Shown here piece by piece: positions 23,363 to 40,814 of a stretch of DNA of 64,000 nucleotides (positions are counted from its first letter, which is position 1; every line of letters starts with the position of its first letter). Under the pieces are notes generated by a model, which worked only from the letters and a program-made list of their open reading frames with translations, did not search any database and was not told where the DNA came from. Where the stretch lies: the IMG/VR virus record IMGVR_UViG_3300021142_001794, positions 3,958-67,957 of that record. One strand, written 5' to 3'. Source of the stretch: a virus. The translations under genes and the position numbers were made by a program.

Positions 23363-24979
23363 TTATTTAAAGTTTATATGGAACGTGCCATAATAAGTTG
23401 AACTCCCCGTGTACCAAAAACAGATAATATCCACTTGGTTAGCCGCTTCGCCTGTCAATGTAACGGGTGGTGCGCTTCCATAACTCCAATATGTAGTAGA
23501 AGGAAATGTTGTTATAGTTCTGTTTCCTGTACCGTCTTGCTTTACTTTTAGTGTATAAAAACCATTGGTAACAGGGTTTGTAATAGTCAATGTCCTGCCC
23601 GTTCCTGCAAGTGTTACCGTTGCTGACCTAAATTGATTGCTAGCAACATTCCAAGTAATAGTAGAGCTATCCGTTAGGATATCGTATCCGATATTTAATG
23701 ATTTAGCCGCAATTGCAGCAGCCAATGTCAAACTATCATTATAAGTCTTACCCAATGTCGCCAATCCTGTAAATCTTGTAGTGGTATCTGCCTTAATAAC
23801 ATTGCTTACTATACTTAGTGGAGCGTTAGCTGTCAATGTAGGTGCAAGTTTAGTTGTATCAAAGTTATAAGCCCCTGTTGATGAATTATAGGTAAATATA
23901 CTACCACTACTAACGTTTCTAGTAGCGGATAATGATGTTAATCCTATAAAATTCTTAGGATTACTCGAATAAGGGTAGAAGTAAGTAGTAGTATCCCCCC
24001 TTAATGCCACCGTACCACTTGCCCCCGTTGGAAATGACAAAATCCCACCCGAAACATTTACCGCCGCTATATTAGGTAAGGTTAAAGTAGGACTACCGCT
24101 TAATACTATTGTGCTTCCACTTCCTGTTGTCGTATTTCCCAATAGTGTTGCATTCCTTCCATTAAGGCTGTCTATAAAGTTGGATTTGTTTAGTTTTAGG
24201 GATAGTTGGGTGGGGGTAACAACACCATTAGCCGCCGTTGTATCTAGTAACCCTTTTGCGCTTGTTATTGCAGTAGCAGTTAAATTATAAGCCCCTAAGT
24301 TCACATTTGAAGTAGCCCCCGTATAGGGAACAAACCCCGTCACAGAAGGTATATCACTATATAAAGCCATTCTTAGCCAAATTGGTTCAGAATTCGTATA
24401 ATAAGGCAACCCGCCGATTGAAGATATTGCTGAACATCCTATACAAGAATAATTGCCATGCGCAGTATCATTGGGTATATATAATCTATGTTGTGCGGAA
24501 ATTGCGTCTGACGAAATATTATATCCCCCTGCCGTCCACCCTTGCCCCGTAACTAAATCCGTTGTAGGATTTAGATAAAAGAAATTGAAATTATGGTCTT
24601 TAAATGTAAGAGGGAAACTATCATTTAATCCTATTGTTGCTGCCGAACCGAAACTATTGCCACCATTGACATAAGCATTTAAAGCAGAACCCAATATTTT
24701 CCATTTAGAACTTGTACTATCATAGTAGTATATATATTGGTCTTGAGGTCGCCTAGTTATTGCGGCATATTTATTTTTAGGAGTAAAAATAGTATCACGG
24801 GATGGAATAAATAACCCACTATCGACACCAACATAACCTAAGTAATTATAATATTTGGATGTCATATTGGTTTGCGTTGCAGTAGGTTGTACAGAGCCGG
24901 CTTGACCGTAAGAAACGCCAAGCATTGATATTACTAATAATATTGCAAAAAGTATTCTTATGTTTAAATTATTTCGCAT
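23363..24979 (-). CDS. Fibre/spike-like receptor-binding protein with signal peptide
   Basis: SYG|Q signal; VPYTGATSNVNLG and VKQDGTG.RTIT fibre motifs; T/S/G-rich. Confidence 0.65.
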   Translation of the reverse strand: MRNNLNIRILFAILLVISMLGVSYGQAGSVQPTATQTNMTSKYYNYLGYVGVDSGLFIPSRDTIFTPKNKYAAITRRPQDQYIYYYDSTSSKWKILGSALNAYVNGGNSFGSAATIGLNDSFPLTFKDHNFNFFYLNPTTDLVTGQGWTAGGYNISSDAISAQHRLYIPNDTAHGNYSCIGCSAISSIGGLPYYTNSEPIWLRMALYSDIPSVTGFVPYTGATSNVNLGAYNLTATAITSAKGLLDTTAANGVVTPTQLSLKLNKSNFIDSLNGRNATLLGNTTTGSGSTIVLSGSPTLTLPNIAAVNVSGGILSFPTGASGTVALRGDTTTYFYPYSSNPKNFIGLTSLSATRNVSSGSIFTYNSSTGAYNFDTTKLAPTLTANAPLSIVSNVIKADTTTRFTGLATLGKTYNDSLTLAAAIAAKSLNIGYDILTDSSTITWNVASNQFRSATVTLAGTGRTLTITNPVTNGFYTLKVKQDGTGNRTITTFPSTTYWSYGSAPPVTLTGEAANQVDIICFWYTGSSTYYGTFHINFK

Positions 24980-25286
24980 AGTCTATAATGATATATTCTT
25001 GATTGTTAACACCGCCATATATTGTAAGGTTATTTTGCCCTGCCGTATAAATAACATATCTACCACCCGTACTTAATGCAAAGTTTGGCAATACTATACC
25101 ACTTACATATACCCTTACATTTGTTGCGCTTGTTAAAGAACTGTTTGTATAAACACTTTGCCCGTCAACCATTGGGCTACCAGCTTGACCTACCTCAAAT
25201 TCTTGCAGCTGCTGCCAACAACTTGAACTACCGGCACTTCCACCCCCCGAACCGCTAAAGCCAATACCGTATTTTCCTGCTGCCAT
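24969..25286 (-). CDS. Small beta-rich virion protein
   Basis: G/S-rich, in structural operon. Confidence 0.5.
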   Translation of the reverse strand: MAAGKYGIGFSGSGGGSAGSSSCWQQLQEFEVGQAGSPMVDGQSVYTNSSLTSATNVRVYVSGIVLPNFALSTGGRYVIYTAGQNNLTIYGGVNNQEYIIIDYAK

Positions 25287-25296
25287 TTCATAGAAT

Positions 25297-25566
25297 TTAT
25301 CTTGTTATGACAATAGAAGCCGAAGCACCACTAGCGGCAGGAGTTATTTTCAATCCCTCTAGTGGTGAAGCAGCCGAGTTAACGAATGTTTGACTAGCAC
25401 CTGTTGGAATAGAAGCAGTTGTAGAATTATTGCCTTGAAATGCACCACCACCCAATAGATTAACACTACCACTAAGAACAAAAATACTTAACTCAAGCAC
25501 ATTATCAGTTGCCTGTATTGTGATGAAATCAGGATATGTTAGTGTAGTGGTATATGCTGCCGCCAT
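25297..25566 (-). CDS. Small beta-rich virion protein
   Basis: A/S/T-rich, in structural operon. Confidence 0.5.
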   Translation of the reverse strand: MAAAYTTTLTYPDFITIQATDNVLELSIFVLSGSVNLLGGGAFQGNNSTTASIPTGASQTFVNSAASPLEGLKITPAASGASASIVITR

Positions 25567-25567
25567 T

Positions 25568-26050
25568 TTATTTGTTTTGTTGTAGTGCCATTACTTTTTG
25601 TATATTCTCTTCCGAAAACATATCTTTTAGTGGCACTTCTTTTAAATACTCTTTTTGTTTATATAATGCTATCCTTACACCCTCTTTATCGCCTTCTTTT
25701 TTGTTATGACAAACCATTGCATTTAATTCTATCGGCGGTATGCTTAACTCGTTACCTTGCACAATTAGCGAACAAGCTATATGTGTTGGAACTACTTGCC
25801 TTAAATTAAAAACATCCATGTAGTTACCCAGTATTTTTTTAATACCCAATATTTCTTCTACACTTTGTTCTTCTATTTCGCAATAATCTTTATGAACATT
25901 AAATTCAACTTGAACGTCTTTTTTGAGATGTAGAAGAACTTGTATATTTTCTTTATTGGTATTGTACTTGGTAGCGTATCTTTTTAATATACCAACCATT
26001 GTACTAGATATTTGACTTGTATCCATTCGATTGTTTTTAATTCGCCACAA
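25568..26050 (-). CDS. Hypothetical protein
   Basis: ORF; start probably at MDTSQ. Confidence 0.6.
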   Translation of the reverse strand: MWRIKNNRMDTSQISSTMVGILKRYATKYNTNKENIQVLLHLKKDVQVEFNVHKDYCEIEEQSVEEILGIKKILGNYMDVFNLRQVVPTHIACSLIVQGNELSIPPIELNAMVCHNKKEGDKEGVRIALYKQKEYLKEVPLKDMFSEENIQKVMALQQNK

Positions 26051-26073
26051 ATATAACTAAATATTTGTTAAAA

Positions 26074-26556
26074 CTATATATTTAGCGTTTTTTCTATTGA
26101 AACGGGCACGGTTATATTGATAAATCCACTATTAACCGATACTGTTCCAACTGCTTTAATGTCAATGCGAGCATTGCCTCCTAATATACTTCCTAATTGA
26201 CTTGTCAAAATATTTAAAGAACTAGATAAATTTACCGTTGCCGTTAATGGTATTGTAACCGTTCCCAATGGTGCAATATTGGTCTGCATCGTTTGCATCA
26301 CATAACCAACGTCTGTACCATTGACATAAATATCAAGGTATAGACTTTGTATATTAACGTTTATAGCCGAACTGTTTTGAAGTTGCAGATTTACGTTTAA
26401 TGATAATGCAGTTGTTGTTATTGACTGAATTGAAATATCCGTAATTGTATAATTAGAATTTTCCAATAAATCAGTCTCTATCTTGGTGTAATTATATATT
26501 GCATACGCAACAGCACCAACAGCCCCTACAATCAATATCGGTTTTAGTAAAGACAT
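26074..26556 (-). CDS. LEA_2/WHy-domain membrane protein
   Basis: N-terminal TM; L.LQN.S...I....DIYVNG..VG...IAP. Confidence 0.7.
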   Translation of the reverse strand: MSLLKPILIVGAVGAVAYAIYNYTKIETDLLENSNYTITDISIQSITTTALSLNVNLQLQNSSAINVNIQSLYLDIYVNGTDVGYVMQTMQTNIAPLGTVTIPLTATVNLSSSLNILTSQLGSILGGNARIDIKAVGTVSVNSGFINITVPVSIEKTLNI

Positions 26557-26558
26557 TT

Positions 26559-27101
26559 TTATAATTGATAAGTTATACCTTTAGATTGCCAATCGCTATT
26601 AACATCATTTTTATCTTGATTCCACAAACCAAACCACCTAGCATCGAATGCACTATTCACAAATGAGAATAAGTCCATCGGGCTTTCCCATATTGTTTGT
26701 ACTTTGGTATGTGCTGGTCTTGTGCCAAATGATTTTTTTAATAATTCTACGTCAAGATTAGTTTGCATTTGCTTTAAAATTGTTGTAGCGTTACTATATT
26801 GGTCGCCCGTTATTACATTCAATGAATTATAAATAGTATTTGCAAAATCATCATAATTACTTGTAGGAAATGTTTGAGTAACATTGTTAGCTTTATCAGT
26901 AGCTATTTCACTATCCAAGTTAGCTTGTGCAGCAGCCGCAGCTTGTGCAGCAGCAGAAGGAAATATTTTATTGTAAGCAAATTTACCCAATGAATAAACA
27001 ACTATGCCAGTACCTACAAACATAAATCCTCTAACCCATCCATTGATTGATTTATCGGTGTACAAAGATGTAAACTTTTGAAAAAAATTATTTTGTTCCA
27101 T
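26559..27101 (-). CDS. Single-TM virion membrane protein
   Basis: N-terminal TM, helical domain. Confidence 0.6.
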   Translation of the reverse strand: MEQNNFFQKFTSLYTDKSINGWVRGFMFVGTGIVVYSLGKFAYNKIFPSAAAQAAAAAQANLDSEIATDKANNVTQTFPTSNYDDFANTIYNSLNVITGDQYSNATTILKQMQTNLDVELLKKSFGTRPAHTKVQTIWESPMDLFSFVNSAFDARWFGLWNQDKNDVNSDWQSKGITYQL

Positions 27102-27111
27102 ATGTTTAATT

Positions 27112-27270
27112 TTATGAGAAAATATCCGTGAACCAATTATATGTTTTTACCGCAGGATTATTGTTTACATTATCATCATACCACTTCTTAATAAGGATAT
27201 AGCCACCAATGCCAACAACGCTAATGCCTATAAACCAATAAACGCCGTTATTACTATTTTTATCAGCCAT
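27112..27270 (-). CDS. Small single-TM protein (52 aa), not in ORF track
   Basis: YWFIGISVVGIGGYILIKK. Confidence 0.6.
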   Translation of the reverse strand: MADKNSNNGVYWFIGISVVGIGGYILIKKWYDDNVNNNPAVKTYNWFTDIFS

Positions 27271-27749
27271 TAGAAAATATTTTTTAGTGAACCCTTAAAA
27301 CTATCCCACCAATTTTTGCTATTAGTAGAAGGTGTGTTTACGCTACCATCAATATTGTAAACAGTTCCATCTGGTTCTGTGTATGTATTATTGCTTATGT
27401 TAAATACAACAGGCGTTCCATCACTTGCCGCAATGATATTCCCTTGACTATCAACAAACATTCCATAAGCAGGATTGATATTCCCCCTTACATTCCCATT
27501 CGCATCATATAAAGTACTATTATCGCTTATTTCTATATAATCCCCAGCAGCATCAACAATATTAGACGGAACACCGTCATTGTTTATTATCTGCTTTTTT
27601 GGTGAACCATCTTTATTTACAGTTGATTTAGGATTAGCAAAAGAAGTTCCTAAAGTGCTAGTAGGCTTTTTCTTGCTATTTATATAAATACCAAGAACAA
27701 TCAATGCCAATGAAGCCCCAATTAATATTTTATGTTCTTTACTTGTCAT
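27270..27749 (-). CDS. Single-TM protein with DxNG beta-hairpin repeats (paralog of 32653-33348)
   Basis: Shared STLYDANGNV.GN..P..GMFV..IAA.DG.PV. Confidence 0.7.
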   Translation of the reverse strand: MTSKEHKILIGASLALIVLGIYINSKKKPTSTLGTSFANPKSTVNKDGSPKKQIINNDGVPSNIVDAAGDYIEISDNSTLYDANGNVRGNINPAYGMFVDSQGNIIAASDGTPVVFNISNNTYTEPDGTVYNIDGSVNTPSTNSKNWWDSFKGSLKNIF

Positions 27750-27779
27750 TTAGTCTTTATATTAATGCAAATTAAAGTA

Positions 27780-28592
27780 TTAATCCTTATAGTTGCTGTA
27801 TTCTTCAAAATAGTTGTCTATATATTTGTTGCATTGCTCCCATCTTTCCGCATTTTCGTCTGTTTGGTTTCTTTGAAAAGTAATAGCCAACGCCCAAATA
27901 GCATCTATGTAAGGATAACCCATACTCAAATAAACATTCAAAGCGTTCAAGTCAGCCTCTAACTCGTTATCAACATCATTGTTTAAGTGGTAGTGGCTAT
28001 ATTCGTGCATCAGTAAAAAGAATATGATAGGAACGGTATAGTTCTTTATCATATTCTTAGATGCTTGTATCTTGCCGCCTTTAACAAAGTTGCCCCCTTC
28101 ATCAACACCATCTATCAGAATCCTAAAAGAAGTGGGTATTATTTGGTTTTTTTCATCAACAATATTATCCAATAATTCAATTGTAAATTTACCATCATCG
28201 CTTTTGTAAACACCAGTATTTGAAACACTAGCATTATAAGCGAATCTTTGAGCGAACCTAACAAAAGACCGTTCATCTATTGTCATATCCGAAAGTGTGA
28301 CAATATTACTTTCGAATGGTACTTTTTGTTGCTTGGTTATCTTGAAAGTATTATCAACGGTAACAACGCCAACGTTTTCATTATAAACAATTATTTGCGT
28401 TTTTGAGCCACATTGCGGCATCCTTACATAAAATGAATAGTCACCGTTTACATTCTTTTGCCTATCGGTAAATACAGTAGTCGTTTGCTTCGCATCGTAA
28501 GCAATTACCCTTATTGGTTGCATCGAGGTAGTTGTTACACTAACTTGATATATTAATGGGTCGTAATTTGTATTTAGTTCGATTAATGCCAT
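27780..28592 (-). CDS. Zincin metallopeptidase
   Basis: HEYSH..ELEAD. Confidence 0.75.
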   Translation of the reverse strand: MALIELNTNYDPLIYQVSVTTTSMQPIRVIAYDAKQTTTVFTDRQKNVNGDYSFYVRMPQCGSKTQIIVYNENVGVVTVDNTFKITKQQKVPFESNIVTLSDMTIDERSFVRFAQRFAYNASVSNTGVYKSDDGKFTIELLDNIVDEKNQIIPTSFRILIDGVDEGGNFVKGGKIQASKNMIKNYTVPIIFFLLMHEYSHYHLNNDVDNELEADLNALNVYLSMGYPYIDAIWALAITFQRNQTDENAERWEQCNKYIDNYFEEYSNYKD

Positions 28593-29011
28593 TATGCCCT
28601 TGTTGGTTGATTTCCTGTGATATTGTTTATAGCTTGTTGGTTCATTTGAGTTACTTCAATATCGTAATGCTGAATAACATCAATGCCTAATTGCTGTGGC
28701 AAATCGTTCCAAGTGTCTTCTTGCACGAATATGTCAATCTCTTGTGGTTCACCCGTACACATTGGGCAGTTACAATTTTCTTCGTGAGAATCGCTACTGT
28801 TAGCCGCTTGTGCAGTAGTGGCATCGGTTGTTGTAGTATTGGTACTATCTGTATTAGGTTGTTTCTTTTTGAACAATCCCTTTACTTTATTCTTTATGTT
28901 TTCAGCATTAGCCGTTATCTCATTAGGGTATGTTTGATAAATGACATACCCTAATCCTACTATTGCAGCACCTAAAAGTATATTCGTTATTTTGTTGTTA
29001 CCCTCTGCCAT
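28592..29011 (-). CDS. Single-TM protein
   Basis: N-terminal TM; HEENCNCPMC. Confidence 0.6.
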   Translation of the reverse strand: MAEGNNKITNILLGAAIVGLGYVIYQTYPNEITANAENIKNKVKGLFKKKQPNTDSTNTTTTDATTAQAANSSDSHEENCNCPMCTGEPQEIDIFVQEDTWNDLPQQLGIDVIQHYDIEVTQMNQQAINNITGNQPTRA

Positions 29012-29039
29012 TGTTTTGTTTTTTATTAGTTACTTAACT

Positions 29040-29219
29040 TTATTTTATTTGAGATAATGCTATTCCACCCAATATTAATAATGTTCCCCCAACAAATAAA
29101 GCGTTTCTTAATTTATTTTCTTTCGAAACAAAATAAGTTATAAATGGTATTGATGCAATTCCAATATAAAACCCGTAAAACTCAATACTGCTAATGTTTT
29201 CTTGTTGAATACTAGGCAT
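29040..29219 (-). CDS. Small two-TM protein (59 aa), not in ORF track
   Basis: Two hydrophobic segments; fills the operon gap. Confidence 0.55.
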   Translation of the reverse strand: MPSIQQENISSIEFYGFYIGIASIPFITYFVSKENKLRNALFVGGTLLILGGIALSQIK

Positions 29220-29224
29220 ATATC

Positions 29225-29602
29225 TTATTTTTTATTTTTTAAATAATAATTCAATGCTATTGCGCCAGCGATTACAACAACAGTTCCTATAATGACATAG
29301 TTATTTATTCCCAATGTCATATTGGAATCATCCACGCCTGTTGATGTGCCGCCCATATCATTTTTAAACTTACCTACTTTTTTCTTTTCCATTGGCTTAA
29401 CCTCTGGTATCTTTACTATTGGTGCTTGACCGAACATATCCATAGCATTTTCTCCAATAGCGTTTTTAAACATATCTTCCATTTCGCTGTTTCCAATAGC
29501 ATTTTTCTTTCTATTGTACTTATCAACGAACTCCTTGAAACTCATAGTGCCACCACTATTTTTATACTCCTTAAATTGCTTGTTTACGCTAACATTTTCC
29601 AT
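29225..29602 (-). CDS. C-terminal TM virion protein with NAIG motifs
   Basis: TM followed by KNKK. Confidence 0.65.
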   Translation of the reverse strand: MENVSVNKQFKEYKNSGGTMSFKEFVDKYNRKKNAIGNSEMEDMFKNAIGENAMDMFGQAPIVKIPEVKPMEKKKVGKFKNDMGGTSTGVDDSNMTLGINNYVIIGTVVVIAGAIALNYYLKNKK

Positions 29603-29603
29603 A

Positions 29604-29993
29604 TTAATCCTTTTTCTTTATAATTATGAATGCAATTATTGCTAATGCTATTCCACCGCCTATATAATACATCGTATAATCAGTAGTAGTTGGCACAGGT
29701 GTATTACTTGAGGGAGTAGTACTAACGGCTTGCGTAGTAGCAATGTTACTTGTAGAAGTAGTGCTTACAGGCGTATTAACAACAACAATTGGTTGTGTTG
29801 ACACTAATTTGTTAATATCAACCATGCCATTTGCAACACTCTGTACATTAACTGGGCTTTGTATTACAGAAGCAGGATTTTCTATAGTAGGAATAGTAGG
29901 AATAGTAGGAATAGTATTTATAATTTTCGGGAATATAGTTTCTATACCATTATTATAACCTATCTCATCATTATTTACCGCACGGTACTTCAT
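29604..29993 (-). CDS. T/P/V-rich C-terminal TM protein
   Basis: DYTMYYIGGG anchor shared with 31057-31752. Confidence 0.65.
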   Translation of the reverse strand: MKYRAVNNDEIGYNNGIETIFPKIINTIPTIPTIPTIENPASVIQSPVNVQSVANGMVDINKLVSTQPIVVVNTPVSTTSTSNIATTQAVSTTPSSNTPVPTTTDYTMYYIGGGIALAIIAFIIIKKKD

Positions 29994-29998
29994 GTCTT

Positions 29999-30178
29999 TT
30001 ATTTAATATTGAATAAATTATTTATAACTAAACCACCCAACCCAAATCCTGCACCATATAAAGCTGTCATTAATAATCCTTGCCTTCTCCAAACGCCAAA
30101 CATAACCCCCGCAAATACGCTAGTTGATAGTATTATACTTGCCTTATCCTTACTTTCTATGCCTTGTATGATATTCAT
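29999..30178 (-). CDS. Small two-TM protein (59 aa), not in ORF track
   Basis: Gly-rich TM pair. Confidence 0.55.
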   Translation of the reverse strand: MNIIQGIESKDKASIILSTSVFAGVMFGVWRRQGLLMTALYGAGFGLGGLVINNLFNIK

Positions 30179-30180
30179 AA

Positions 30181-30393
30181 CTAACTATTTGAAGTGTAAG
30201 AAATAGCTACCCTAGTAATGAAAGAACCGACTACAAAACCAGCCAATGTGGTAAACCATAAAGTACCACCGTATTTTCTGCCTAATACCAATCCTGTTAC
30301 AGCACCTATACCACCACCTATCAACGTACCCTCGTTTAAGGTAGAGTTCATATCAAATATTCCCGTAGATGTTGTAGCCGTTATTGTTGTCAT
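30181..30393 (-). CDS. Glycine-zipper two-TM protein
   Basis: GTLIGGGIGAVTGLVLG. Confidence 0.6.
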   Translation of the reverse strand: MTTITATTSTGIFDMNSTLNEGTLIGGGIGAVTGLVLGRKYGGTLWFTTLAGFVVGSFITRVAISYTSNS

Positions 30394-30395
30394 AA

Positions 30396-31055
30396 CTAAT
30401 CTTTTTTAAGTGTTTTTATTACAACAAGCACTACTATTACCAACGCAACCGCTCCCATAATACCATAAATTAAAGTATTATTAGAAGTCGATGCTGGTGT
30501 AGTATCTTGTATAACCATAGCAGCATTTTGTTGTGTACTTTTATTTGATAGGTTCTGTGTAAATTCGCTTGCTTGTTGACTTATAACAAGGTCGCAATTA
30601 TTAGTCGAATACCAACCATCGTAATATTGCTTGATAGTATTTACCGCTTGCGTATAAGCCCTATTATAATTATCATCAGTACCACCAATAGCCCTATTTT
30701 TATCTATACTTGTCAATTCTGCATCTAATGCTAAAGATGCGGTTTTAGCTTGCGTACAGTTAGTTGAATTTGTAGGCAATGGATATGTCTTTAGGTATTT
30801 AACCAATCCGTAAAAATTAAGCATCCCATTAGCCCAATCCCTACCCCCATTTGTACTGTAAGGAGGCAAGCCCATTATTGAAACGGCATCATCTATTGCT
30901 TGCTTAGAATTGGGCAAAGAAAACAATGCAAGTTGCATAGGTTGTTGACCCATCCCGCCAGCGTAAGATTGTACTATTGATATAATCTGTTGCTGATTGG
31001 TAGATTGGCTAGATGCAACGCCAATTAAATTATCTAGTTGGTTATTGGCACTCAT
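30396..31055 (-). CDS. C-terminal TM virion protein
   Basis: TM followed by KTLKKD. Confidence 0.65.
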   Translation of the reverse strand: MSANNQLDNLIGVASSQSTNQQQIISIVQSYAGGMGQQPMQLALFSLPNSKQAIDDAVSIMGLPPYSTNGGRDWANGMLNFYGLVKYLKTYPLPTNSTNCTQAKTASLALDAELTSIDKNRAIGGTDDNYNRAYTQAVNTIKQYYDGWYSTNNCDLVISQQASEFTQNLSNKSTQQNAAMVIQDTTPASTSNNTLIYGIMGAVALVIVVLVVIKTLKKD

Positions 31056-31056
31056 A

Positions 31057-31752: not shown

Positions 31753-31753
31753 A

Positions 31754-32155: not shown

Positions 32156-32160
32156 AATCT

Positions 32161-32631: not shown

Positions 32632-32652
32632 TATTTATTTTTTTTGATTCAC

Positions 32653-33348: not shown

Positions 33349-33368
33349 CTTTATTTATGTTTTAAATT

Positions 33369-33749
33369 TTAAGCATTTGGATTGTCATTCTCGCCAGAAT
33401 CATTTGGGTCGTAAACCGTTCCTTTCGGGTCAATGTAGTGCAATTTACCATCAATAGTTTGATAGTTCCTGCCATCTGTTTCTAACCTATTCCCGTTTGC
33501 ATCGGCGAAAAATATTCCATCTTTAGTAACAAACATATCTACTTTCTTTCCCGTAGAATCCAATCCTACACCATTTTTTAAAGTTGCAGTGGCAATACCA
33601 TTGATGCTATATAAAGTAGTTCCATTAATGCCTATCTTATAATCCTTTTGGGCATTCAAAGTATGCTTCATTTGATAAATAACATAGTAAGCAGCAACGC
33701 CACCAATAAGAACAACGCTACCAATAATAATCAAGTTTTTGTTTTTCAT
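33369..33749 (-). CDS. Single-TM protein
   Basis: Start MKNKN avoids overlap; N-terminal TM. Confidence 0.6.
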   Translation of the reverse strand: MKNKNLIIIGSVVLIGGVAAYYVIYQMKHTLNAQKDYKIGINGTTLYSINGIATATLKNGVGLDSTGKKVDMFVTKDGIFFADANGNRLETDGRNYQTIDGKLHYIDPKGTVYDPNDSGENDNPNA

Positions 33750-33750
33750 T

Positions 33751-34377
33751 TTATTTATGTTTTGATACGAAATAATGATATGCAACACCAGCAGCTATCA
33801 AACTACCTATAATAGTAACAGGCATTACCCAATTGTTAGCTATCGCCTTTTGATTGTTCGATTGCGTTATTTTAGCTTGTGTAGTAGTATTTGTTGATGT
33901 TGTTTGTTGGTTGATTAAGCTAGGTGCTATCTTTTCGGCAAAACCAAATATATTAGAAAGTACGCTACTTGAACTGCCACTAGCTAAAGTTCCATCGGCA
34001 TTAAAGTTTGTTCCAGAACCATCATCATAAGTATTATCCCCGTTTGAAGTGTAAACGTGACCACTTTTATCTTCATAAGCCCCTGTGCCGCTATCACCTC
34101 CCGTAGGATTCCATGCTATTGCACCTACGCCGCTTGCATTAGTCCATCCACTTGATTTTGTTGGCATAGAGCCGCTTGCATTAGTGAACTTTCCTTTTAC
34201 TGTTTTCTTGGTTTCACCACTAGCGTTTTTATTTACTCCGCCACCATGAGACCATCCACTTTTTTCTAATGTAGGTGCGGTTAGTGCAGTTCCCGTTGCA
34301 TTAAGATGAGAAGCCATTTTTCTTTGTATAGCAAGGCTTCCATTCACGTTGCCCGTTCTTTTGTGTGCTGTATCCAT
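33751..34377 (-). CDS. C-terminal TM virion protein with repeated NAxG motifs
   Basis: NATG once and NASG three times in the N-terminal half; TM followed by SKHK. Confidence 0.65.
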   Translation of the reverse strand: MDTAHKRTGNVNGSLAIQRKMASHLNATGTALTAPTLEKSGWSHGGGVNKNASGETKKTVKGKFTNASGSMPTKSSGWTNASGVGAIAWNPTGGDSGTGAYEDKSGHVYTSNGDNTYDDGSGTNFNADGTLASGSSSSVLSNIFGFAEKIAPSLINQQTTSTNTTTQAKITQSNNQKAIANNWVMPVTIIGSLIAAGVAYHYFVSKHK

Positions 34378-34388
34378 TTTTTTGGTTT

Positions 34389-34775
34389 TTATTTTTTACT
34401 TAATGATATGATTGCAAAGCCTATCAATACCGCTGATGCAAAGATAATTATATTTGTCTGCAATGCAACGTTTCCCCCCGTATTATCTTGGGTAGAAGTA
34501 GTTGTATCGCCATTAACACCTTTGTACACCAACATATTTGCAACCCTTTGGCTATCTTCACTTGGGGGAATCGAATAGTAATTTACCAATATATCCCTAT
34601 CAGGGTGTATCTTCATAACTTCCTTTAACCCATCTTCGCCGCAATTTTGAACTATACTTGAAAGCCCGTCTGCTAATTCACTTTCGTCTTGCGGTTCTAA
34701 ACCGTAATCTTGACAAAGATTTATAGCTTGTTGTTGGCTTTTTGGATGTTCGGCTACATATTGAAAAACGTCCAT
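34389..34775 (-). CDS. C-terminal TM protein
   Basis: IHPDRD helical domain, TM followed by SKK. Confidence 0.65.
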   Translation of the reverse strand: MDVFQYVAEHPKSQQQAINLCQDYGLEPQDESELADGLSSIVQNCGEDGLKEVMKIHPDRDILVNYYSIPPSEDSQRVANMLVYKGVNGDTTTSTQDNTGGNVALQTNIIIFASAVLIGFAIISLSKK

Positions 34776-34838: not shown

Positions 34839-34862
34839 AGGTTTTTATAGAACAACTATTGC

Positions 34863-35609
34863 TTAGTGATAAGCAGGTGCGCTCTGATTTTGTACAACAG
34901 CACTACCGTTCAATGCGCCAGTAATACTCACTTGCGTCTTAGGGAACAAGTAGATGTTGGTTACAGCAGCAGTAGCTTGTGGGTTTGTTTGTTGTGTAAA
35001 TAATATACCACCGTTACCATCAATTGTGTACTCTAAAGTACTTGTGGTGATAGTAGTTTGGTATTGGTATTGGTCGTAGATGAATATCAACGGCTTTTGC
35101 GCTTGACTACCGTCAGCATAAAGTTCACTAAATGTCATTGGAGACGTTACTTGCAACGTGTTGTTTGCGCCAGATGGAGCAATCAATTGTGTACAACCAA
35201 TAGTGAAAGGTTTCAATTGTGATTGAATCAACAATTGTTGGTAAGTTACGTTACTTAAACCACTTGTTACAGTGATTGCACCAAGAGCAGTAGCAGCAGT
35301 AGCCAAAGGATACCATGCACCAGCAACGAACAAACCACTTGCACCGTTCAATACACCATTAGCGAAGAACAACTGAATAGTTGTAGCAGCAGCCAAAGAA
35401 GATGTAGCGGTTACTGTGATTATAAAAGGTGAACTTGTTGGAGCAGAGCCTACTTGTGCAGTACCGCCAGCATTTGACCAACCACTTCTTTGAACAGGCA
35501 AAGAAGCACCAGCAGCGTTTCTTCCCATAGAGTTCCTGTAATTTCCAGCAGAATTGCTGAAAGATTGCCCCCTGTTAGCGGCGGCTTGTAAATAATTAGA
35601 TGGTTTCAT
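34863..35609 (-). CDS. Putative major capsid protein (jelly-roll candidate) with NAxG-rich N-terminal extension
   Basis: Beta-rich, nearly devoid of acidic residues, own promoter and terminator, next to the packaging ATPase; paralog at 57694-58089. Confidence 0.55.
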   Translation of the reverse strand: MKPSNYLQAAANRGQSFSNSAGNYRNSMGRNAAGASLPVQRSGWSNAGGTAQVGSAPTSSPFIITVTATSSLAAATTIQLFFANGVLNGASGLFVAGAWYPLATAATALGAITVTSGLSNVTYQQLLIQSQLKPFTIGCTQLIAPSGANNTLQVTSPMTFSELYADGSQAQKPLIFIYDQYQYQTTITTSTLEYTIDGNGGILFTQQTNPQATAAVTNIYLFPKTQVSITGALNGSAVVQNQSAPAYH

Positions 35610-35665: not shown

Positions 35666-35785
35666 TTAATAGCCACTGATGAATTTCTGCAAAATCATTG
35701 GCTTAACAACTTTGTCGTAAGCAATAGAAACTACTAATGCTACCAATGCGATTTTACCGATTTCCTTTAAATGTTCGTGTTTCAT
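35666..35785 (-). CDS. Small membrane protein (39 aa) co-transcribed with capsid candidate, not in ORF track
   Basis: MKHEHLKEIGKIALVALVVSIAYDKVVKP.. Confidence 0.6.
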   Translation of the reverse strand: MKHEHLKEIGKIALVALVVSIAYDKVVKPMILQKFISGY

Positions 35786-35898: not shown

Positions 35899-36064
35899 AA
35901 TAGGGTTTATTTAACAAGTATTATTTGATTGGTTTACTTATATAGGCAATATTTTACTAATAAAAGTAAAATAAAAAACCCAACTAACATACAAATGCTA
36001 ATTGGGTAAAATGAAAAAATGAAAAAAATCTTTCCTACAACTTTCGATTGCAAATATAATGCAA

Positions 36065-36952
36065 TTATTCAAAATAGAAATAATCCTTTAAGAATTTTTT
36101 GTTAGCAGTTATATAGGCTTGTTCCATGGACATTGTTTTCTTGCCAGATAAGTCTCTTTTTTCGGCAAAATACCTTACAATAGGCTTTCCATCGTCAGAT
36201 GATAAATAGTCCATTACCGCCATTTCAGCCTCTTGCTTAGTGAAGTCGCCTGTAATCTTGCTATCATCGTTATTAACTATAAGGCTGAAATATCTATTGT
36301 CGTTATGATTCGTAACGCCGTCCTCGTATCTTGCATTTACTATTTTTTCAGCAATGCTTAATATATGTACCTTATCTTCCGCCCGTTCCTTATATCTTGA
36401 AACTTCGTCATTGGTTTTATGTAGCCTAATAAGATTAGTGTTTGACAATATCTTGGGCGTAAGAACCCTACCAACGCCTTGAAAGTGTAGTACAATATCC
36501 AAGCCAATGTGCCTATTAGATATGATACGACCTATCAAATCGGCTTTCATGTTTTCGGACGTGTATTTGTTTATATCTTCTAGTAGCAGTAATCCATTCC
36601 TGTAATAAGATAGTATCTTTTCTAGTGCAACTGAATATTCCGTATTAGTCATTGCAACGTTGTTATCCCAATACGGGGCAACACGCCTAACCTCACTAAT
36701 ATTGCTATTGCTGAATTTGGGAATATCCTTTATTGCGATGCGTTTGATAGAATGTGTTATCATTCCAGCTTTAGGGTCGGGAAACTTAAAACTACTAAAT
36801 TCATTGTTAACATCGAATATCAATGCTTTTCTAGGCTTCATTGTGCTAGTGCCTTGTATGTATTGATAGATGAATTTAATGGTCTCTATTGTCTTACCTA
36901 CGCCTTTCCTGCCCACTGCGGCAAGCATCATTGGTTGTCTGGTTTCTGCCAT
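36065..36952 (-). CDS. FtsK-HerA superfamily genome packaging ATPase (P9/A32-like)
   Basis: Walker A GRKGVGKT, Walker B LLLLED, SNRHIGLDIVLHFQ Arg-finger/Q motif. Confidence 0.75.
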   Translation of the reverse strand: MAETRQPMMLAAVGRKGVGKTIETIKFIYQYIQGTSTMKPRKALIFDVNNEFSSFKFPDPKAGMITHSIKRIAIKDIPKFSNSNISEVRRVAPYWDNNVAMTNTEYSVALEKILSYYRNGLLLLEDINKYTSENMKADLIGRIISNRHIGLDIVLHFQGVGRVLTPKILSNTNLIRLHKTNDEVSRYKERAEDKVHILSIAEKIVNARYEDGVTNHNDNRYFSLIVNNDDSKITGDFTKQEAEMAVMDYLSSDDGKPIVRYFAEKRDLSGKKTMSMEQAYITANKKFLKDYFYFE

Positions 36953-36953
36953 A

Positions 36954-37160: not shown

Positions 37161-37163
37161 AAT

Positions 37164-38024
37164 CTATTCTTTTGATTTAGGTCTTCTACCCCTTCTTTTT
37201 GGCTCATCCTCTTCCTCTATCTGTATCGTTTCGACAGTTCCGTCATTTTTAACATTGACCGTTTCGTTTTCAGCTAAAGGAGAAGGTGCAGGATTAACTG
37301 ATTGTTGTTGCTGTGGCTGTTCCGTTGTTGCTTGTTGTGTTGGTGGTGGTGGCATCGTAGCCCCTACCGGTCTTTTACTTATCTCTACCAACTTTTCATA
37401 CATATTTTTTTTCTGCTTGGCAAGTTGAATAACGATAGGCACTTTTTGTACCAAATCCATAACAACGTAATAAGCCAACATTTCTTCGTCAGTAAGCCCT
37501 ATTCCTTTCTTTAGTAGTATCCTTGTCAATAAAGGTCTTACATTGTCTTTAAACTCTTGGCTTACAGTAAGGACATCGCTAGTTCCACTATTATACTCTA
37601 CTATTACTTGCTCGACCGTCCTAATAGTACCATCATCATAGGTTATCTTGGCATTAAGGTTAATGTCACCTTTCAAGTGTGATTCCCTTGCTTTGTCTTC
37701 ATTAATCTTACAAAGCCCCTCTGCTGCTTTATGTAGATAAGAATAAACTCCGATAGCCATATCTGCCATTGCGTCTGCTTGTCTTTTCTTTTCGCCAGCA
37801 GACATATCTTCCAACTCTTCATTAAAAGGCTGTTGTTGTTTCTTTTCCTTAGTTTGTTGCGGTTCGGCTACATCTTCGTCCTCATCCATTTGAAAAGGTG
37901 GGGGTGTAAATGCTGGCTCTGGAATAGGACTATTCTTTTCTTGCTCACTCATTTCGATATTGATTCCGCCGTAATTCTTTACATCAACATCTTTACTTAA
38001 CATTGGGTGTTTACTTGATTCCAT
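37164..38024 (-). CDS. Hypothetical protein, possible packaging accessory
   Basis: Acidic N-terminus, hydrophobic helix, P/Q-rich tail. Confidence 0.55.
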   Translation of the reverse strand: MESSKHPMLSKDVDVKNYGGINIEMSEQEKNSPIPEPAFTPPPFQMDEDEDVAEPQQTKEKKQQQPFNEELEDMSAGEKKRQADAMADMAIGVYSYLHKAAEGLCKINEDKARESHLKGDINLNAKITYDDGTIRTVEQVIVEYNSGTSDVLTVSQEFKDNVRPLLTRILLKKGIGLTDEEMLAYYVVMDLVQKVPIVIQLAKQKKNMYEKLVEISKRPVGATMPPPPTQQATTEQPQQQQSVNPAPSPLAENETVNVKNDGTVETIQIEEEDEPKRRGRRPKSKE

Positions 38025-38445
38025 AATTTTTATCGTTTAATTTTTGTTTTGCTTTTTCGTAGCCCTCTTTTAATATTATATCACTAGGCACTTTAGGATT
38101 GAAAAGGTTCGCATTTTTAAAATATTTAACCATATTGTAAACACTTTGCTTAGTCGTTACATTTAGCGACATAGCTATTGTATTGTATGGCACATTTTCA
38201 AACCTTAGCATATAAGCCATTATAGCCCTTGCAGCCATATTTACATCATTACTTTTTGATACCAAACATTCTTTATCATTGAAAGCATATATTATAGCAT
38301 CCTTAATGGTTTTTATCTTTTCATCAGTAGCCGTTGATACCCTTTGCTTCTTTAAATCCTTTATAGTTTCCCTTATGCCTTTAAGCGTAACGGTCTTACT
38401 CATTTCAATCAACAAATCACTAAAGTGTTTATCTTCTTTTGCCAT
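38011..38445 (-). CDS. HTH protein (DnaA-C-like)
   Basis: ARAIMAYML..YNTIAMSLN..QSVYNM. Confidence 0.5.
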   Translation of the reverse strand: MAKEDKHFSDLLIEMSKTVTLKGIRETIKDLKKQRVSTATDEKIKTIKDAIIYAFNDKECLVSKSNDVNMAARAIMAYMLRFENVPYNTIAMSLNVTTKQSVYNMVKYFKNANLFNPKVPSDIILKEGYEKAKQKLNDKNYGIK

Positions 38446-39131
38446 TATAGCTTATGTTTTTTCTTGAAAGGTGGATAATTCAAAACCATTTCCGCTACTT
38501 CTACGCCCTTATCTACGTCCGACAAATAATGTACACCCATGAATAACCTCGAATAGTTAAAATCCCTACTCGCCTTGCCCATCCAATCAAATAACTCTGG
38601 ATGATAGATACCAACTACGCCACTTAGTATTGCACCCATATAAGCATGACCGCTAGGATAACTAGGGCTATCAATCGTTATGCTTTGGTGGTGATGGAAG
38701 TCGCTCATTTCGTAGTAAACTGCCATTTGATATGGTCTAGGTCTTTGATAGTGGTATTTAAGTTTAGTTATCAATCCTAGCGTATCAAAAAGCACATCAT
38801 CCAAAACCTGATTCAGCCTATTGGCATCTATACCAAATTTGCCATCCTGTGTTGCGATTCCCTGTTTTAAGAACTCCACCAATCCTACATCGTGGCTTCT
38901 ATACCTATCCAATGCCGTATGGTTCTGCAAGATTGTTTTAGTATTGTTAACCAATGTTTGCAGTTCAGCCCTTGTTATACGACTACTATTGGTAGGTGGT
39001 TTATTTGCAGGGTCGCTTATTATTTGGGTAAATAGTTTGTCAAGGTAACTAGGTAGCTTTAGCCATTCATCTTGCTCCAATGTTGCGTTGCCGTACTTAA
39101 TCAAATCTAGTTCCTTTGGGAATAAACCCAT
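38445..39131 (-). CDS. PAP2/vanadium-haloperoxidase-superfamily phosphatase
   Basis: KYHYQRPRP, PSYPSGH, SRLFMGVHYLSD. Confidence 0.85.
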   Translation of the reverse strand: MGLFPKELDLIKYGNATLEQDEWLKLPSYLDKLFTQIISDPANKPPTNSSRITRAELQTLVNNTKTILQNHTALDRYRSHDVGLVEFLKQGIATQDGKFGIDANRLNQVLDDVLFDTLGLITKLKYHYQRPRPYQMAVYYEMSDFHHHQSITIDSPSYPSGHAYMGAILSGVVGIYHPELFDWMGKASRDFNYSRLFMGVHYLSDVDKGVEVAEMVLNYPPFKKKHKL

Positions 39132-39244
39132 AATGCTTCGTTTTTAATTCACATCGCAAATTTAGTGCATTTTATTAAGGAAATGTTAAAATAAGTAAAT
39201 TATGGCTCTATTTTGTATATATAATATATATTTGCAAGGAATTA

Positions 39245-39273
39245 AAAAAGGGCAGCCATAGATATAGCCGCCC
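39245..39273 (-). terminator. Terminator after tRNA-Met
   Basis: GGGCGGCTA..TGGCTGCCC followed by TTTTTT. Confidence 0.6.
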
Positions 39274-39314
39274 GTAGAATCAAAAACCCTCCCCATGAAA
39301 GAAAAAAATATTAG

Positions 39315-39387
39315 TAGCGGCGGCAAGGTTCGAACTTGCGGTATCTAGCTTATGAGGCTAACGAGATGACCACTTCTCCACGCCGCA
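39315..39387 (-). tRNA. tRNA-Met(CAT), initiator-like
   Basis: TTAGC-CTCATAA-GCTAG; unpaired 1:72 (T:T); GCAAG-TTCGAAC-CTTGC T-arm. Confidence 0.85.
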
Positions 39388-39392
39388 ATTTA

Positions 39393-39779
39393 TTAGAACA
39401 ATCCCTTTATGTTTCCGCTTGAATTTACACTAGTGGTACTTTCACTAGTCTGTTTCTTTTGTAAGTCCTGCACCGTTGTTTGTAGGTTTGCTATATCATT
39501 GGTTAAAGTAGCAATTACGCCGTTCTGTGTCTTTATCTGTGTAGAATAGTAATGTACAGCGTAAACGATACCCGTAATGGCTGCAACTACTACAATAGCT
39601 TCTACCCAATCAATGTTTTTTAAGAACTCGAAATGGTTTTTTTGTGGTGTTTCTGCTACAACTGTCGTAGGGTTATATTGTGGTGTCACACCTTCAACCG
39701 TTACCCCAGCAGGTTGAATAGCAGGTGTCGTAGGTATTTGTGGTGCGCCCATATCAGGCTGCATTATTGGCTCTGGCAT
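39393..39779 (-). CDS. TM plus coiled-coil protein
   Basis: Central TM, heptad region. Confidence 0.65.
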   Translation of the reverse strand: MPEPIMQPDMGAPQIPTTPAIQPAGVTVEGVTPQYNPTTVVAETPQKNHFEFLKNIDWVEAIVVVAAITGIVYAVHYYSTQIKTQNGVIATLTNDIANLQTTVQDLQKKQTSESTTSVNSSGNIKGLF

Positions 39780-39803
39780 TTTATTTTAGTTTTTATAGTG
39801 TTA

Positions 39804-39911
39804 TCATTTTCCTGCGTTCCATCCTTTACTAGCTACCCAAAAGATGCCATATATAAATGCACCCGTGATAGCTAATCCAACAGCCGTTCCTATTAGTGTT
39901 TTCTTTTGCAT
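39804..39911 (-). CDS. Small single-TM protein (35 aa), not in ORF track
   Basis: MQKKTLIGTAVGLAITGAFIYGIFWVASKGWNAGK. Confidence 0.55.
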   Translation of the reverse strand: MQKKTLIGTAVGLAITGAFIYGIFWVASKGWNAGK

Positions 39912-39944
39912 TTTGATTTTATTTTTAATTTACAAAGATAGTGA

Positions 39945-40343
39945 TTAGTTTGTTTTGGCAGATGTCGAAGCTAAATCTTGTTGCAATTTCTCGTCTTTTT
40001 CTATATTCTTAGCAATTACACCTACAATTAAACCAGCACTTAATAATCCTATACCTATTCTAGCTTTATTCTTATAATCACCCCCTACTGAACAAAGAAT
40101 ACCTAAAACCAATAAATACCAGCCAGCAGTATAACCGTAATACCCCAAGCTGTTACGTATCCAATATTGCTTAGGGGTAATTTTACCCTCTTCCAATTCT
40201 TGCTTATCTATTTGTTCTCTCCAAAAAAAAATTGCATCTGCGGGTGTTGGGATACAGTTACTTAAAATCGAAGCAATAACTGCGGTAAATATTATTGCAT
40301 CCCCATTACCATTACTCCATGCTTTTTTTATTCCTAAATCCAT
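39945..40343 (-). CDS. Multi-TM membrane protein
   Basis: Three hydrophobic segments. Confidence 0.65.
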   Translation of the reverse strand: MDLGIKKAWSNGNGDAIIFTAVIASILSNCIPTPADAIFFWREQIDKQELEEGKITPKQYWIRNSLGYYGYTAGWYLLVLGILCSVGGDYKNKARIGIGLLSAGLIVGVIAKNIEKDEKLQQDLASTSAKTN

Positions 40344-40460
40344 AATTTTTTTATTTTAAAATTACCCCGTTGCAAGTGTTTCGTTACAACGGGGATGTTT
40401 GTCCTTTTACAGAATCCAATAGGTTTTCGTGGCAAGGACTAATCGTGATTGAACCAAATA

Positions 40461-40814
40461 TCAACTCCTTTTTTGTACGGTCGTATAAACCATGTTGTTT
40501 TTAACCAAATCAATACTATCATAACTTGTACCGCCTTCGGGCTTTATTGTAGTTCCAAATTTTATACCCCAAGAACCATCAAGTATAAACGTATCGCTAC
40601 CATAAATACCCAATGTTACTTTCTGCCAAATAGCATTTTTGTAGGTCATCGTAGCCGTTCCTTTATCGTAATCTACGTTTTGAATGTTTATAGAAGGAAT
40701 CCAAATATTGTTAAGAAAGAATGAGTACCCTGCACCTATGGCACATATACCAGCCACAACTGCGCCTACTTTGATGATTATATCAGTAGCTTTGCTGAAT
40801 TTTGCTAATTCCAT
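40461..40814 (-). CDS. Single-TM protein
   Basis: N-terminal TM, beta domain; TACCTTTG promoter at 40832-40839. Confidence 0.65.
   Translation of the reverse strand: MELAKFSKATDIIIKVGAVVAGICAIGAGYSFFLNNIWIPSINIQNVDYDKGTATMTYKNAIWQKVTLGIYGSDTFILDGSWGIKFGTTIKPEGGTSYDSIDLVKNNMVYTTVQKRS

Follow-up and report, generated by a model that had tools for sequence, protein, structure and literature searches.

What kind of virus carries a stand-alone ATPase of the packaging type next to a gene for a beta-rich protein, among long runs of small membrane-protein genes, is the question raised by a 64,000-nt stretch of viral DNA (the window, i.e. bases 3958–67957 of the 67,957-nt IMG/VR record IMGVR_UViG_3300021142_001794; all coordinates given here are window positions unless noted). 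The initial annotation, made without database searches, had attributed the region around the ATPase gene (36065–36952) and an adjoining capsid candidate (34863–35609) to an unusually large tailless, membrane-containing virus of Bacteroidota. Our analysis supports this interpretation of a large tailless membrane virus, and we put at about 0.7 the probability that the window represents a large-genome lineage of tailless viruses with an internal membrane, which would use a motor like B204 and a coat protein with one jelly-roll-like domain. The evidence consists of the fold of the ATPase, the beta-sandwich fold of the coat candidate, a conserved three-gene cassette, an enrichment in proteins with predicted transmembrane (TM) segments, the lack of detectable tailed-phage hallmarks and the existence of a large relative bounded by inverted terminal repeats (ITRs). 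It is from gene content that we infer the shape of the virion, its taillessness, the internal membrane and what each protein does, and from integrated relatives that we infer the host.

The ATPase, the coat candidate and their gene context

The genome-packaging ATPase candidate (36065–36952; like all window features described in this section, on the minus strand) is a protein of 295 aa that its Walker motifs and fold place in the FtsK-HerA superfamily, close to proteins of the A32/P9/B204 type. Walker A (GRKGVGKT, i.e. G14-x4-G19-K20-T21) and Walker B (LLLLED, residues 121–126) are invariant or nearly so across 26 aligned homologues, and a large protein collection yielded 395 homologues at E ≤ 1e-3. 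The sequence itself gave no match in Pfam, PHROG, PDB (single-sequence or profile), phage records or plasmids; its profile found nothing in PDB at E ≤ 0.4, and no sequence profile assigned it to the A32/P9/B204 group. An AlphaFold2 model built from the 26-sequence alignment (pLDDT 89.8, pTM 0.86) gave 37 Foldseek matches in PDB at E ≤ 1e-3. Among the matches listed, ranks 1–4, 6–10 and 12 are B204 chains of STIV2 and STIV (E 1.4e-6 to 8.6e-6; TM-score by target 0.59–0.66 over about 245 columns), and none is a terminase. B204 is a stand-alone ATPase of about 200–300 aa from a tailless virus with an internal membrane. Weaker matches were to HerA, PilB, DotB, F1-ATPase and chains of the R388 type IV secretion system (T4SS). 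The identification of 36065–36952 as a packaging ATPase of the A32/P9/B204 type, which the initial annotation had given as a P9/A32-type ATPase, is thus well supported by the modelled fold, not by sequence.

The gene downstream of the ATPase (34863–35609) encodes the major capsid protein candidate, a protein of 248 aa with a predicted disordered N-terminal arm and a single jelly-roll-like beta-sandwich of about 190 aa. It has 10 close relatives, and a profile search of 1.84 billion proteins found 279 representatives at E ≤ 1e-3, most family members being 220–260 aa long and a few of 320–456 aa matching the profile twice. No sequence relationship to Pfam, PHROG or PDB entries was found. The AlphaFold2 model, built from 82 diverse sequences (pLDDT 83.2, pTM 0.75), consists of a short N-terminal helix, a disordered stretch (residues 15–47), 13 strands, eight of them long, and one 10-residue helix, which bears out that the capsid candidate noted beside the ATPase is beta-rich. 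The best fold matches (E 8.8e-3 to 3e-2, TM-score 0.25–0.41) are dominated by picornavirus VP3/VP1 and comovirus capsid proteins; other weak ones include Cry-toxin domain III, nucleoplasmin-type cores, cupins, a carbohydrate-binding module and PRD1 P5 (rank 31). In the ESM Atlas the protein's own model has a pLDDT of 0.29 and every row fell under the bar set there. A three-copy model of residues 50–248 scored 0.00, a result that weighs neither for nor against. The chain does not hold two jelly-roll barrels, the family profile matching it once, nor do two different single jelly-roll capsid genes lie side by side downstream of the ATPase, where there is one coat-family gene.

Gene context is a stronger argument than the coat fold match. 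Between the ATPase and the coat candidate lies an open reading frame (ORF) for a single-pass membrane protein of 39 aa (35666–35785), which is the small TM gene that the initial annotation had included in the module and, by analogy with PRD1 P20/P22, a candidate anchor at the packaging vertex. A metagenome scan with a single protein gave no loci, and an alignment-based scan gave 156, of which 80 were kept and 62 had at least 1300 nt downstream of the ATPase gene. In 60 of these 62 a coat-family ORF follows the ATPase on the same strand (median gap 355 nt), an arrangement that counts as a capsid neighbour only if the neighbour really is a capsid protein, and in 56 of the 60 the gap holds a small hydrophobic ORF. 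The wider order of PAP2-like protein, 286-aa protein, ATPase, coat candidate, 128-aa tail-anchored TM protein, 270-aa HExxH protein and 160-aa TM protein is kept in five of five IMG/VR loci, counted as far as each locus extends.

Three of the flanking proteins deserve mention. The 286-aa protein upstream of the ATPase (37164–38024) has an acidic N-terminus, a Pro/Gln-rich region and a basic C-terminal tail, and gave no Pfam or PHROG match; homologues lie directly upstream of the ATPase in the related IMG/VR records G2 and G4, at loci L006, L018 and L023 and in an element of Fluviicola described below, and a role in assembly or as a scaffold is our guess. Further upstream, 38445–39131 encodes a PAP2-family phosphatase-like protein (PF01569, E 9.2e-10) with homologues at the same place in L003–L006. 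The 270-aa protein (27780–28592) combines an N-terminal beta-sandwich with an HExxH (HEYSH) region and has homologues in L002–L006, L020 and the Fluviicola element; it gave no sequence match in Pfam, PHROG or PDB, the leads from the Atlas (DUF4344, M48 peptidases) stayed under its bar, and it is possibly a metallopeptidase.

A promoter and a terminator of its own had also been claimed for the coat candidate. There is a terminator-like hairpin with a 13-pair stem and a T run after the ATPase gene (35978–36007) and a second one after the coat candidate (34826–34809); this part of the claim and the promoter are not established, because the number of hairpins in the region (2, against 1.5 ± 1.2 in shuffles) and that of sigma-70-type promoter matches (5, against 6.2 ± 2.9 by chance) are not above chance. 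The Bacteroidota-type promoter pattern (TTTG ... TAnnTTTG) occurred at seven sites, against 2.7 ± 1.6 in shuffles, and was dropped, none of the sites lying at a relevant gene start.

The coat family has further members in the window and its relatives. A 131-aa paralogue of the coat domain (57694–58089; coat-family profile E 1.1e-6, profile positions 94–202) has homologues in G2 (G2_15181) and G4 (G4_97286) and is, by analogy, a penton candidate. Directly downstream of it, 56683–57690 encodes a Ser/Asn/Thr-rich protein of 335 aa and apparently beta type, which has no Pfam or PHROG match and is a spike candidate on the same analogy: PRD1 P31, of 126 aa, precedes the spike protein P5, a parallel that we draw from size and order. 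Besides a single-domain coat gene adjoining its ATPase gene and three short paralogues, G4 has a 397-aa protein (L011:17225–18418) with two tandem coat-family domains (residues 54–205 and 236–394, each E ~1e-42).

Tailed-phage hallmarks and genome size

Six-frame Pfam searches, in every one of which the controls matched, were made on the record itself (G000) and on five related IMG/VR records (G001–G005). Terminase_6N was found in none of the five and not in the record itself (0/1), and Terminase_6C, TerL_ATPase, Phage_capsid and Phage_portal were each found in 0/5 (G000 and G002–G005), these being the portal and capsid families that were searched in six frames. PHROG and Pfam scans covered the window ORFs of at least 200 aa, among which there was no PHROG match to a terminase, a portal, an HK97 capsid or the 'tail' category. 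The roughly 4 kb outside the window (record 1–4279) were covered by the six-frame Pfam searches; three ORFs lie there, one of 305 aa that is transposase-like, one of 364 aa and one of 556 aa that by eye resembles a DNA methyltransferase. The contig opens with a run of 11 G residues. The early observation that the window has no recognisable terminase, portal or HK97 capsid thus extends to the whole record and to five relatives, and neither an HK97 capsid nor a terminase, which together would have spoken for a tailed phage, was found elsewhere in the 67,957 nt. A tblastn search of 72,556 plasmids and 50,697 phage records matched neither the ATPase nor the coat candidate.

Of the 22 G2 ORFs that reach 280 aa, 20 were scanned against PHROG (the other two being homologues of scanned window ORFs), as were 10 large G4 ORFs, and no terminase, portal or capsid was found except for an artefact. 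This consists of 'terminase large subunit' matches to residues 136–521 of an 823-aa G2 protein (L009:11986–14457), which we read as an intein because the residues overlap a LAGLIDADG/Hom_end domain at 367–439 and also match primase and DnaC PHROGs; the extein is an AAA_5 (MoxR-type) ATPase. The intein stretch could mislead automatic annotation.

G2 (G002, L007–L010) is 74,101 nt long and is bounded by a perfect 653-bp ITR, for which reason this linear genome is probably complete. Short GTGTA/GTACG-type repeats abound in the ITR, one strand of which is rich in purines, and no protein-primed polymerase was detected in G2. Its late block has a gene resembling Holliday junction resolvases (DUF1064), and hairpin ends are an idea only. 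G4 is longer still, at 102,228 nt, and is rated 100% complete by CheckV. Among the 119 other ATPase clusters listed, 13 have a longest contig of 60.8–72.0 kb and none a longer one, and metagenome contigs with the ATPase reach 82 kb, leaving aside a 211-kb and a 1.74-Mb contig, both probably cellular. These sizes lie beyond those of characterised members, as had been supposed: SSIP-1, the largest cultured phage of this build among those checked, has 43,788 bp, the record being 1.55 times and G2 1.7 times larger.

Membrane proteins and other genes of the window

Predicted TM segments were counted with a Kyte-Doolittle scan (19-residue window, threshold 1.6) of greedy non-overlapping ORFs of at least 45 aa. 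At least one was predicted in 39 of the 122 ORFs of the whole record, and 36 of these are no longer than 250 aa and have one or two, a few of the flagged ORFs being probably spurious antisense ones. Many of the proteins are C-terminally anchored and end in a basic tail (...KKKD, ...LKKD, ...HKKN, ...KQKD), in keeping with the initial count of over 25 short proteins with one or two TM helices and basic flanks. They are concentrated in the late block (20.7–42.45 kb; 24/45) as compared with the early region (1–20.7 kb; 4/42; Fisher p = 1e-5), the fractions being 16/32 for 24969–40814 and 6/9 for 56.65–62 kb. In the relatives, TM segments are predicted for 30 of 119 (G2) and 40 of 144 (G4) ORFs.

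Within the late block, whose ORFs listed here are all on the minus strand, the longest series is a run of 17 ORFs (28592–34775), 10 of them with one predicted TM segment, mostly a C-terminal anchor, and several with Thr/Pro/Asn-rich ectodomains; 34389–34775 is conserved beside the coat candidate in L002–L006. Of four ORFs at 26074–27749, three are flagged for TM segments (160, 52 and 159 aa, the 160-aa one being conserved) and the fourth, of 180 aa, has a hydrophobic segment below the threshold. Three membrane proteins of 128, 132 and 117 aa are encoded at 39393–40814, and the ORF at 40461–40814 has a homologue in G4. A tRNA-Met gene (39314–39387), one of five tRNA genes, lies inside this morphogenesis block between the PAP2-like gene and the membrane-protein genes upstream of it. 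At the other end of the block two genes (22596–24979) encode candidate host-recognition or vertex proteins of 254 and 538 aa. The former (22596–23360) has a Laminin_G_3 domain (PF13385, E 4.1e-13) and is a 'virion structural protein' by PHROG, and the latter (23363–24979) has an N-terminal signal or TM segment and a weak match with the same label. These matches (phrog_8510, E 4.7e-11; phrog_19200, E 1.6e-3) are the only structural PHROG labels among the window ORFs of at least 200 aa.

The minus-strand genes beyond the late block include a lysis or entry set (58090–59540) that consists of a 214-aa Phage_lysozyme with a C-terminal TM anchor (58090–58734; PF00959, E 3.6e-17; phrog_7, endolysin), a 175-aa glucosaminidase (59013–59540; PF01832, E 1.3e-11) and a 90-aa TM protein. 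At higher coordinates lies a second cluster of membrane proteins of 126, 111, 311 and 202 aa (59537–61984), in which 59537–59917 has a homologue in G2. Two giant proteins, of 706 aa (42444–44564) and 1774 aa (44621–49945), match phrog_22901 (E 6.1e-39) and are related to the polyvalent proteins of the relatives; the larger one has an HExxH region, and the G2 homologues carry ART-PolyVal, DUF5661, GNAT and DUF2958 domains. The two proteins contain seven and eight copies of [KEHQ]GG[EKSTQG][LIMVF], often in the form aromatic-x-K-G-G-E, against a mean of 0.1–0.2 and a maximum of 2 in shuffles. The giant proteins of the relatives (G2 and G4: L009, L012, L013) show 'YAKGG[EKS]', and in a 1229-aa G2 protein four such sites fall between Pfam domains. 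To judge from sequence, they could serve as linkers or, in virion polyproteins, as Gly-Gly-X protease sites.

The remaining assignments come from the PHROG and Pfam scans. The early region encodes a primase-helicase (2182–4140), RecT (5985–6740), a methyltransferase (7653–8177), a PLD-like (PLDc_2) protein (15990–16655), a GIY-YIG homing endonuclease (17932–18570) and an exonuclease-like protein (18594–19835), and a PLD-like protein is also present in the Fluviicola element (L035:2851–3741). A dATP/dGTP diphosphohydrolase of 272 aa (17071–17889), in which an N-terminal PF18909 domain (E 9e-33) is fused to a phrog_420 domain, may hint at manipulation of the nucleotide pool or a modified base. 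A glycosyltransferase and a methyltransferase are encoded at 53672–55689 and a hexapeptide transferase at 62702–63511. There is a primase-helicase in place of a DNA polymerase, for which no match was obtained among the window ORFs of 200 aa or more. The primase-helicase, RecT, the exonuclease-like protein, the methyltransferases, the Phage_lysozyme and the glucosaminidase agree with the replication and lysis genes of tailed-phage type that the initial annotation had recognized. The GC content is 34.5%.

Known viruses, hosts and competing explanations

The closest structural match of the ATPase model is to B204 of STIV and STIV2 (Turriviridae), viruses of archaeal hosts whose B204 has no sequence-level similarity to the window ATPase. 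STIV has a genome of about 17 kb and a double jelly-roll capsid protein, as against 68 kb and a single-domain candidate here. The gene order is that of PRD1, in which P9, gpi, the small membrane packaging protein P20, P3 and P22 are followed by many small membrane proteins. PRD1 further has a jelly-roll protein of penton size with a spike gene after it, for both of which the window has candidates, as well as a lysozyme of the virion type and ITRs, the last seen here only in the relative G2. However, PRD1 has a genome of 14,927 bp, a P3 of 395 aa that is a double jelly roll (the coat candidate having 248 aa) and a protein-primed DNA polymerase with a terminal protein, where the window has a primase-helicase and no polymerase was detected. 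The traits of Tectiviridae, a protein-primed family B polymerase with terminal protein and an ITR-bounded genome of about 15 kb, are thus not those of this 68-kb record. P23-77 (Halopanivirales/Matshushitaviridae) resembles the window in that a single beta-barrel capsid candidate lies downstream of the ATPase, but its genome is 17 kb long and its VP16 and VP17 genes are side by side, whereas in the window a single coat-family gene adjoins the ATPase gene and the short paralogue lies at a distance of 22 kb. In common with such viruses, however, some relatives have two coat-family genes next to each other (L028).

The host of SSIP-1 belongs to the Bacteroidota/Rhodothermota group. The SSIP-1 genome is circular, has a GC content of 57% (34% in the window), encodes a 2319-aa structural protein and has no detectable homologue of the window ATPase or the coat family. 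SSIP-1 has been described as a phage in culture that lacks a tail, contains a membrane and combines PRD1-type architecture with capsid proteins of two types (PMC6356626). A metagenomic survey of putative prokaryotic double jelly-roll viruses gives genomes of roughly 7–18 kb (PMC5894146). Full-text searches of the literature turned up no description of the present lineage, a result that does not extend to the contig lists in the additional files of PMC5894146, which could bear on it. The lineage appears to be new: the window shows neither the traits of Tectiviridae, nor a double jelly-roll protein, nor the two adjacent capsid genes of Halopanivirales, yet its virus would work most like these.

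Relatives of the ATPase were found at 14 loci in a species-genome collection, most of which have a coat-family profile match near the ATPase. Those on long contigs or chromosomes, namely in Fluviicola chungangensis MAH-3, a Parvicellaceae metagenome-assembled genome (MAG), a Crocinitomicaceae MAG and Fibrella musci (26%), are all in Bacteroidota and appear integrated, with 26–39% ATPase identity. The Fluviicola element (G006 contig C18, ~118.3 to ~140 kb; L034–L036) starts at a tRNA-Arg gene and a large serine recombinase and continues with a patatin-like protein, a lysin-like DUF2272/CHAP protein and small TM proteins in a block, next to which lie the 270-aa homologue and the coat-family gene, whose product has 238 aa; after these come the PLD-like protein, DUF6908, the 286-aa homologue and the ATPase. 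Since this element carries the module and none of its 10 scanned ORFs matched a terminase by Pfam, the same module exists, to judge by its genes, at a much smaller, integrated size. Its right border is undefined because the search for attachment sites found only a 15-nt repeat of the 3' part of the tRNA-Arg gene (118,328 and 151,963; ~0.07 expected by chance); the repeat at 151,963 would make the element 33.6 kb long, a length that is not secure. Integrated copies are rare, as no ATPase homologue at E ≤ 1e-10 was present in any of 400 other Bacteroidota genomes sampled.

Two sets of relatives are placed elsewhere by their records. An element 67–75% identical in parts to the Fluviicola one (L024; locus GC 36%) lies in a record titled Glaciecola amylolytica THG-3.7 (CP034120.1), i.e. 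under the name of a gammaproteobacterium, and reflects either cross-phylum spread or a mislabelled genome. ATPase and coat-family genes also occur on short contigs binned to Chlamydiales, Ignavibacteria, Pacearchaeota and Saccharibacteria (L017, L027, L028, L029, the adjacent pair mentioned above being in L028); these are probably mis-binned viral contigs, the alternative being a wider host range. The hexapeptide-transferase gene gave no pointer to a host, its matches being mostly metagenome proteins. Bacteroidota would be the host of the window's virus on the strength of the integrated relatives in that phylum, as distinct from evidence in the contig itself.

Several results weigh against a tailless virus with an internal membrane. 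The coat model has no Foldseek match in PDB at E ≤ 1e-3, so that statistics give no secure link to a capsid family and the jelly-roll assignment is weak. PRD1 P3, PM2 P2, P23-77 VP16/VP17 and the STIV capsid proteins are not among the listed fold matches, and when the coat profile was compared by hhalign with 15 SSIP-1 proteins, P23-77 VP16/VP17 and PRD1 P3 and P31, the probability did not exceed 1.3% (0.1–0.2% for P3 and P31). Of the jelly-roll coat proposed initially there stands a confident beta-sandwich, jelly-roll-like and single-domain in the model and with viral single jelly rolls as its best matches; those matches fall short of significance. By hhalign, too, the ATPase profile aligned with PRD1 P9 at a probability of 7% and over Walker A only, and with the P23-77 ATPase at 12%, the latter alignment being collinear along 137 columns that begin at Walker A and reach beyond Walker B. 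The fifth-ranked fold match of the ATPase is the Zot N-terminal domain (E 2.8e-6, TM-score by target 0.45, 178 columns), which is of the filamentous-phage assembly ATPase type. Finally, genes could be missing, since the record, classed 'linear', is without terminal repeats and is rated 60% complete by CheckV, and a 1262-aa G2 protein ends in a C-terminal domain of the tail-fibre type (Peptidase_S74).

The last two points are what would be expected of a divergent tailed phage (Caudoviricetes) whose hallmark genes lie on a missing part or have diverged beyond detection and whose ATPase and beta-sandwich protein have other roles. The replication and lysis genes of tailed-phage type suit such a phage as well, as does the automatic taxonomy, which puts related protein clusters mostly under Uroviricota. 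A receptor-binding fibre in G2 is compatible with a tailless virus and equally expected of a tailed phage. The CheckV estimate of 60% means little, because ITR-bounded G2 is rated only 57% and such estimates are therefore unreliable for this lineage. Moreover, the five hallmark Pfam families are unmatched wherever they were searched (five records per family, six for Terminase_6N, and six records overall, including G2 and the 102-kb G4), the large ORFs are without a PHROG match to a terminase, portal or capsid, the Fluviicola element has the module and none of these genes among its 10 scanned ORFs, and the best fold match of the ATPase is the packaging NTPase of a tailless virus; on this balance we regard a tailed phage as quite unlikely. 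The Zot match, the insignificant jelly-roll match and the fact that about a third of the ORFs encode membrane proteins would instead suit a membrane-rich virus that is built differently (enveloped, pleomorphic or extruded), in which a Zot/HerA-like ATPase served assembly or export and the beta-sandwich protein was a nucleoprotein, matrix or spike protein. We consider this unlikely, given that B204 covers more of the ATPase (~245 versus 178 columns) at a higher TM-score (0.64 versus 0.45), that the ATPase has no TM segment, unlike pI/Zot, that the order of ATPase, tiny TM protein and coat candidate mirrors PRD1, that penton-size coat-domain paralogues and a tandem-duplicated form exist in relatives, and that 68–102 kb far exceeds the genomes of inoviruses and plasmaviruses. 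A non-viral system in which the membrane proteins and the FtsK-HerA ATPase move DNA between cells, be it a conjugative element, an integrative element or an export system resembling vesicles or gene-transfer agents, could draw on the integrated copies in bacterial chromosomes and on the conjugation motors of the FtsK-HerA superfamily, R388 T4SS and HerA being among the weaker fold matches. Polyvalent proteins, too, reportedly occur in conjugative elements, a finding ascribed to Iyer and colleagues in 2017. A non-viral system is very improbable in view of the lack of any match to the ATPase or the coat candidate in the 72,556 plasmids, the absence of relaxases and type IV secretion families from the matches of all Pfam and PHROG scans, the presence of phage-like endolysins, primase-helicase, RecT, tRNAs and homing endonuclease, and the clustering of free contigs at 60–82 kb, one of them with ITRs.

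We therefore return to a tailless virus with an internal membrane. The window would be the larger part of the genome, of about 68 kb or more, of an uncultured dsDNA virus with an icosahedral particle like those of PRD1, PM2, STIV and P23-77, for which the following course of events can be proposed. The late minus-strand block (~42.4 to 20.7 kb) would give rise to dozens of single-pass membrane proteins that insert in the host cytoplasmic membrane. On such a virus-specific membrane patch the 34863–35609 protein would assemble as capsomers and close a procapsid, the 131-aa paralogue (57694–58089) and the neighbouring beta-rich protein forming vertices and spikes, and the Laminin_G and 538-aa proteins possibly forming spikes as well. 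The ATPase (36065–36952) would dock at a unique vertex via the 35666–35785 membrane protein and pump in the linear genome, which would be replicated by the phage-type primase-helicase, RecT and exonuclease. The giant polyvalent proteins (42444–49945) would be packaged and delivered with the DNA, and the TM-anchored lysozyme and the glucosaminidase may serve entry, lysis or both.

A more far-reaching proposal, which we offer tentatively and hold to be doubtful at present, is that the window belongs to a widespread, undescribed bacterial virus lineage of high rank whose members range from ~22–34 kb integrated to 68–102 kb free. Such a lineage would combine a B204-like motor, a coat protein that is tandemly duplicated in some members and so forms a living series from single to double jelly roll, linear ITR genomes and giant Gly-Gly-X virion polyproteins; large genomes in this build would have arisen in bacteria too, and databases would file the lineage under tailed phages. 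Elsewhere, linear ITR genomes and Gly-Gly-X polyproteins are known from adenoviruses and from the large DNA viruses of eukaryotes.

If the interpretation given here is right, a coat-protein family with single and tandem-duplicated forms is added to those known, and a considerable number of environmental contigs now labelled 'tailed phage' are misfiled. Fluviicola chungangensis MAH-3 is a cultured strain with a compact integrated relative, in which the shape, lipids and proteins of the particle are directly testable. Large genomes in this virus build are otherwise a trait of eukaryotic viruses; a bacterial lineage at 68–102 kb, with about 400 ATPase homologues in public metagenomes, would mean that the build scales up in bacteria.

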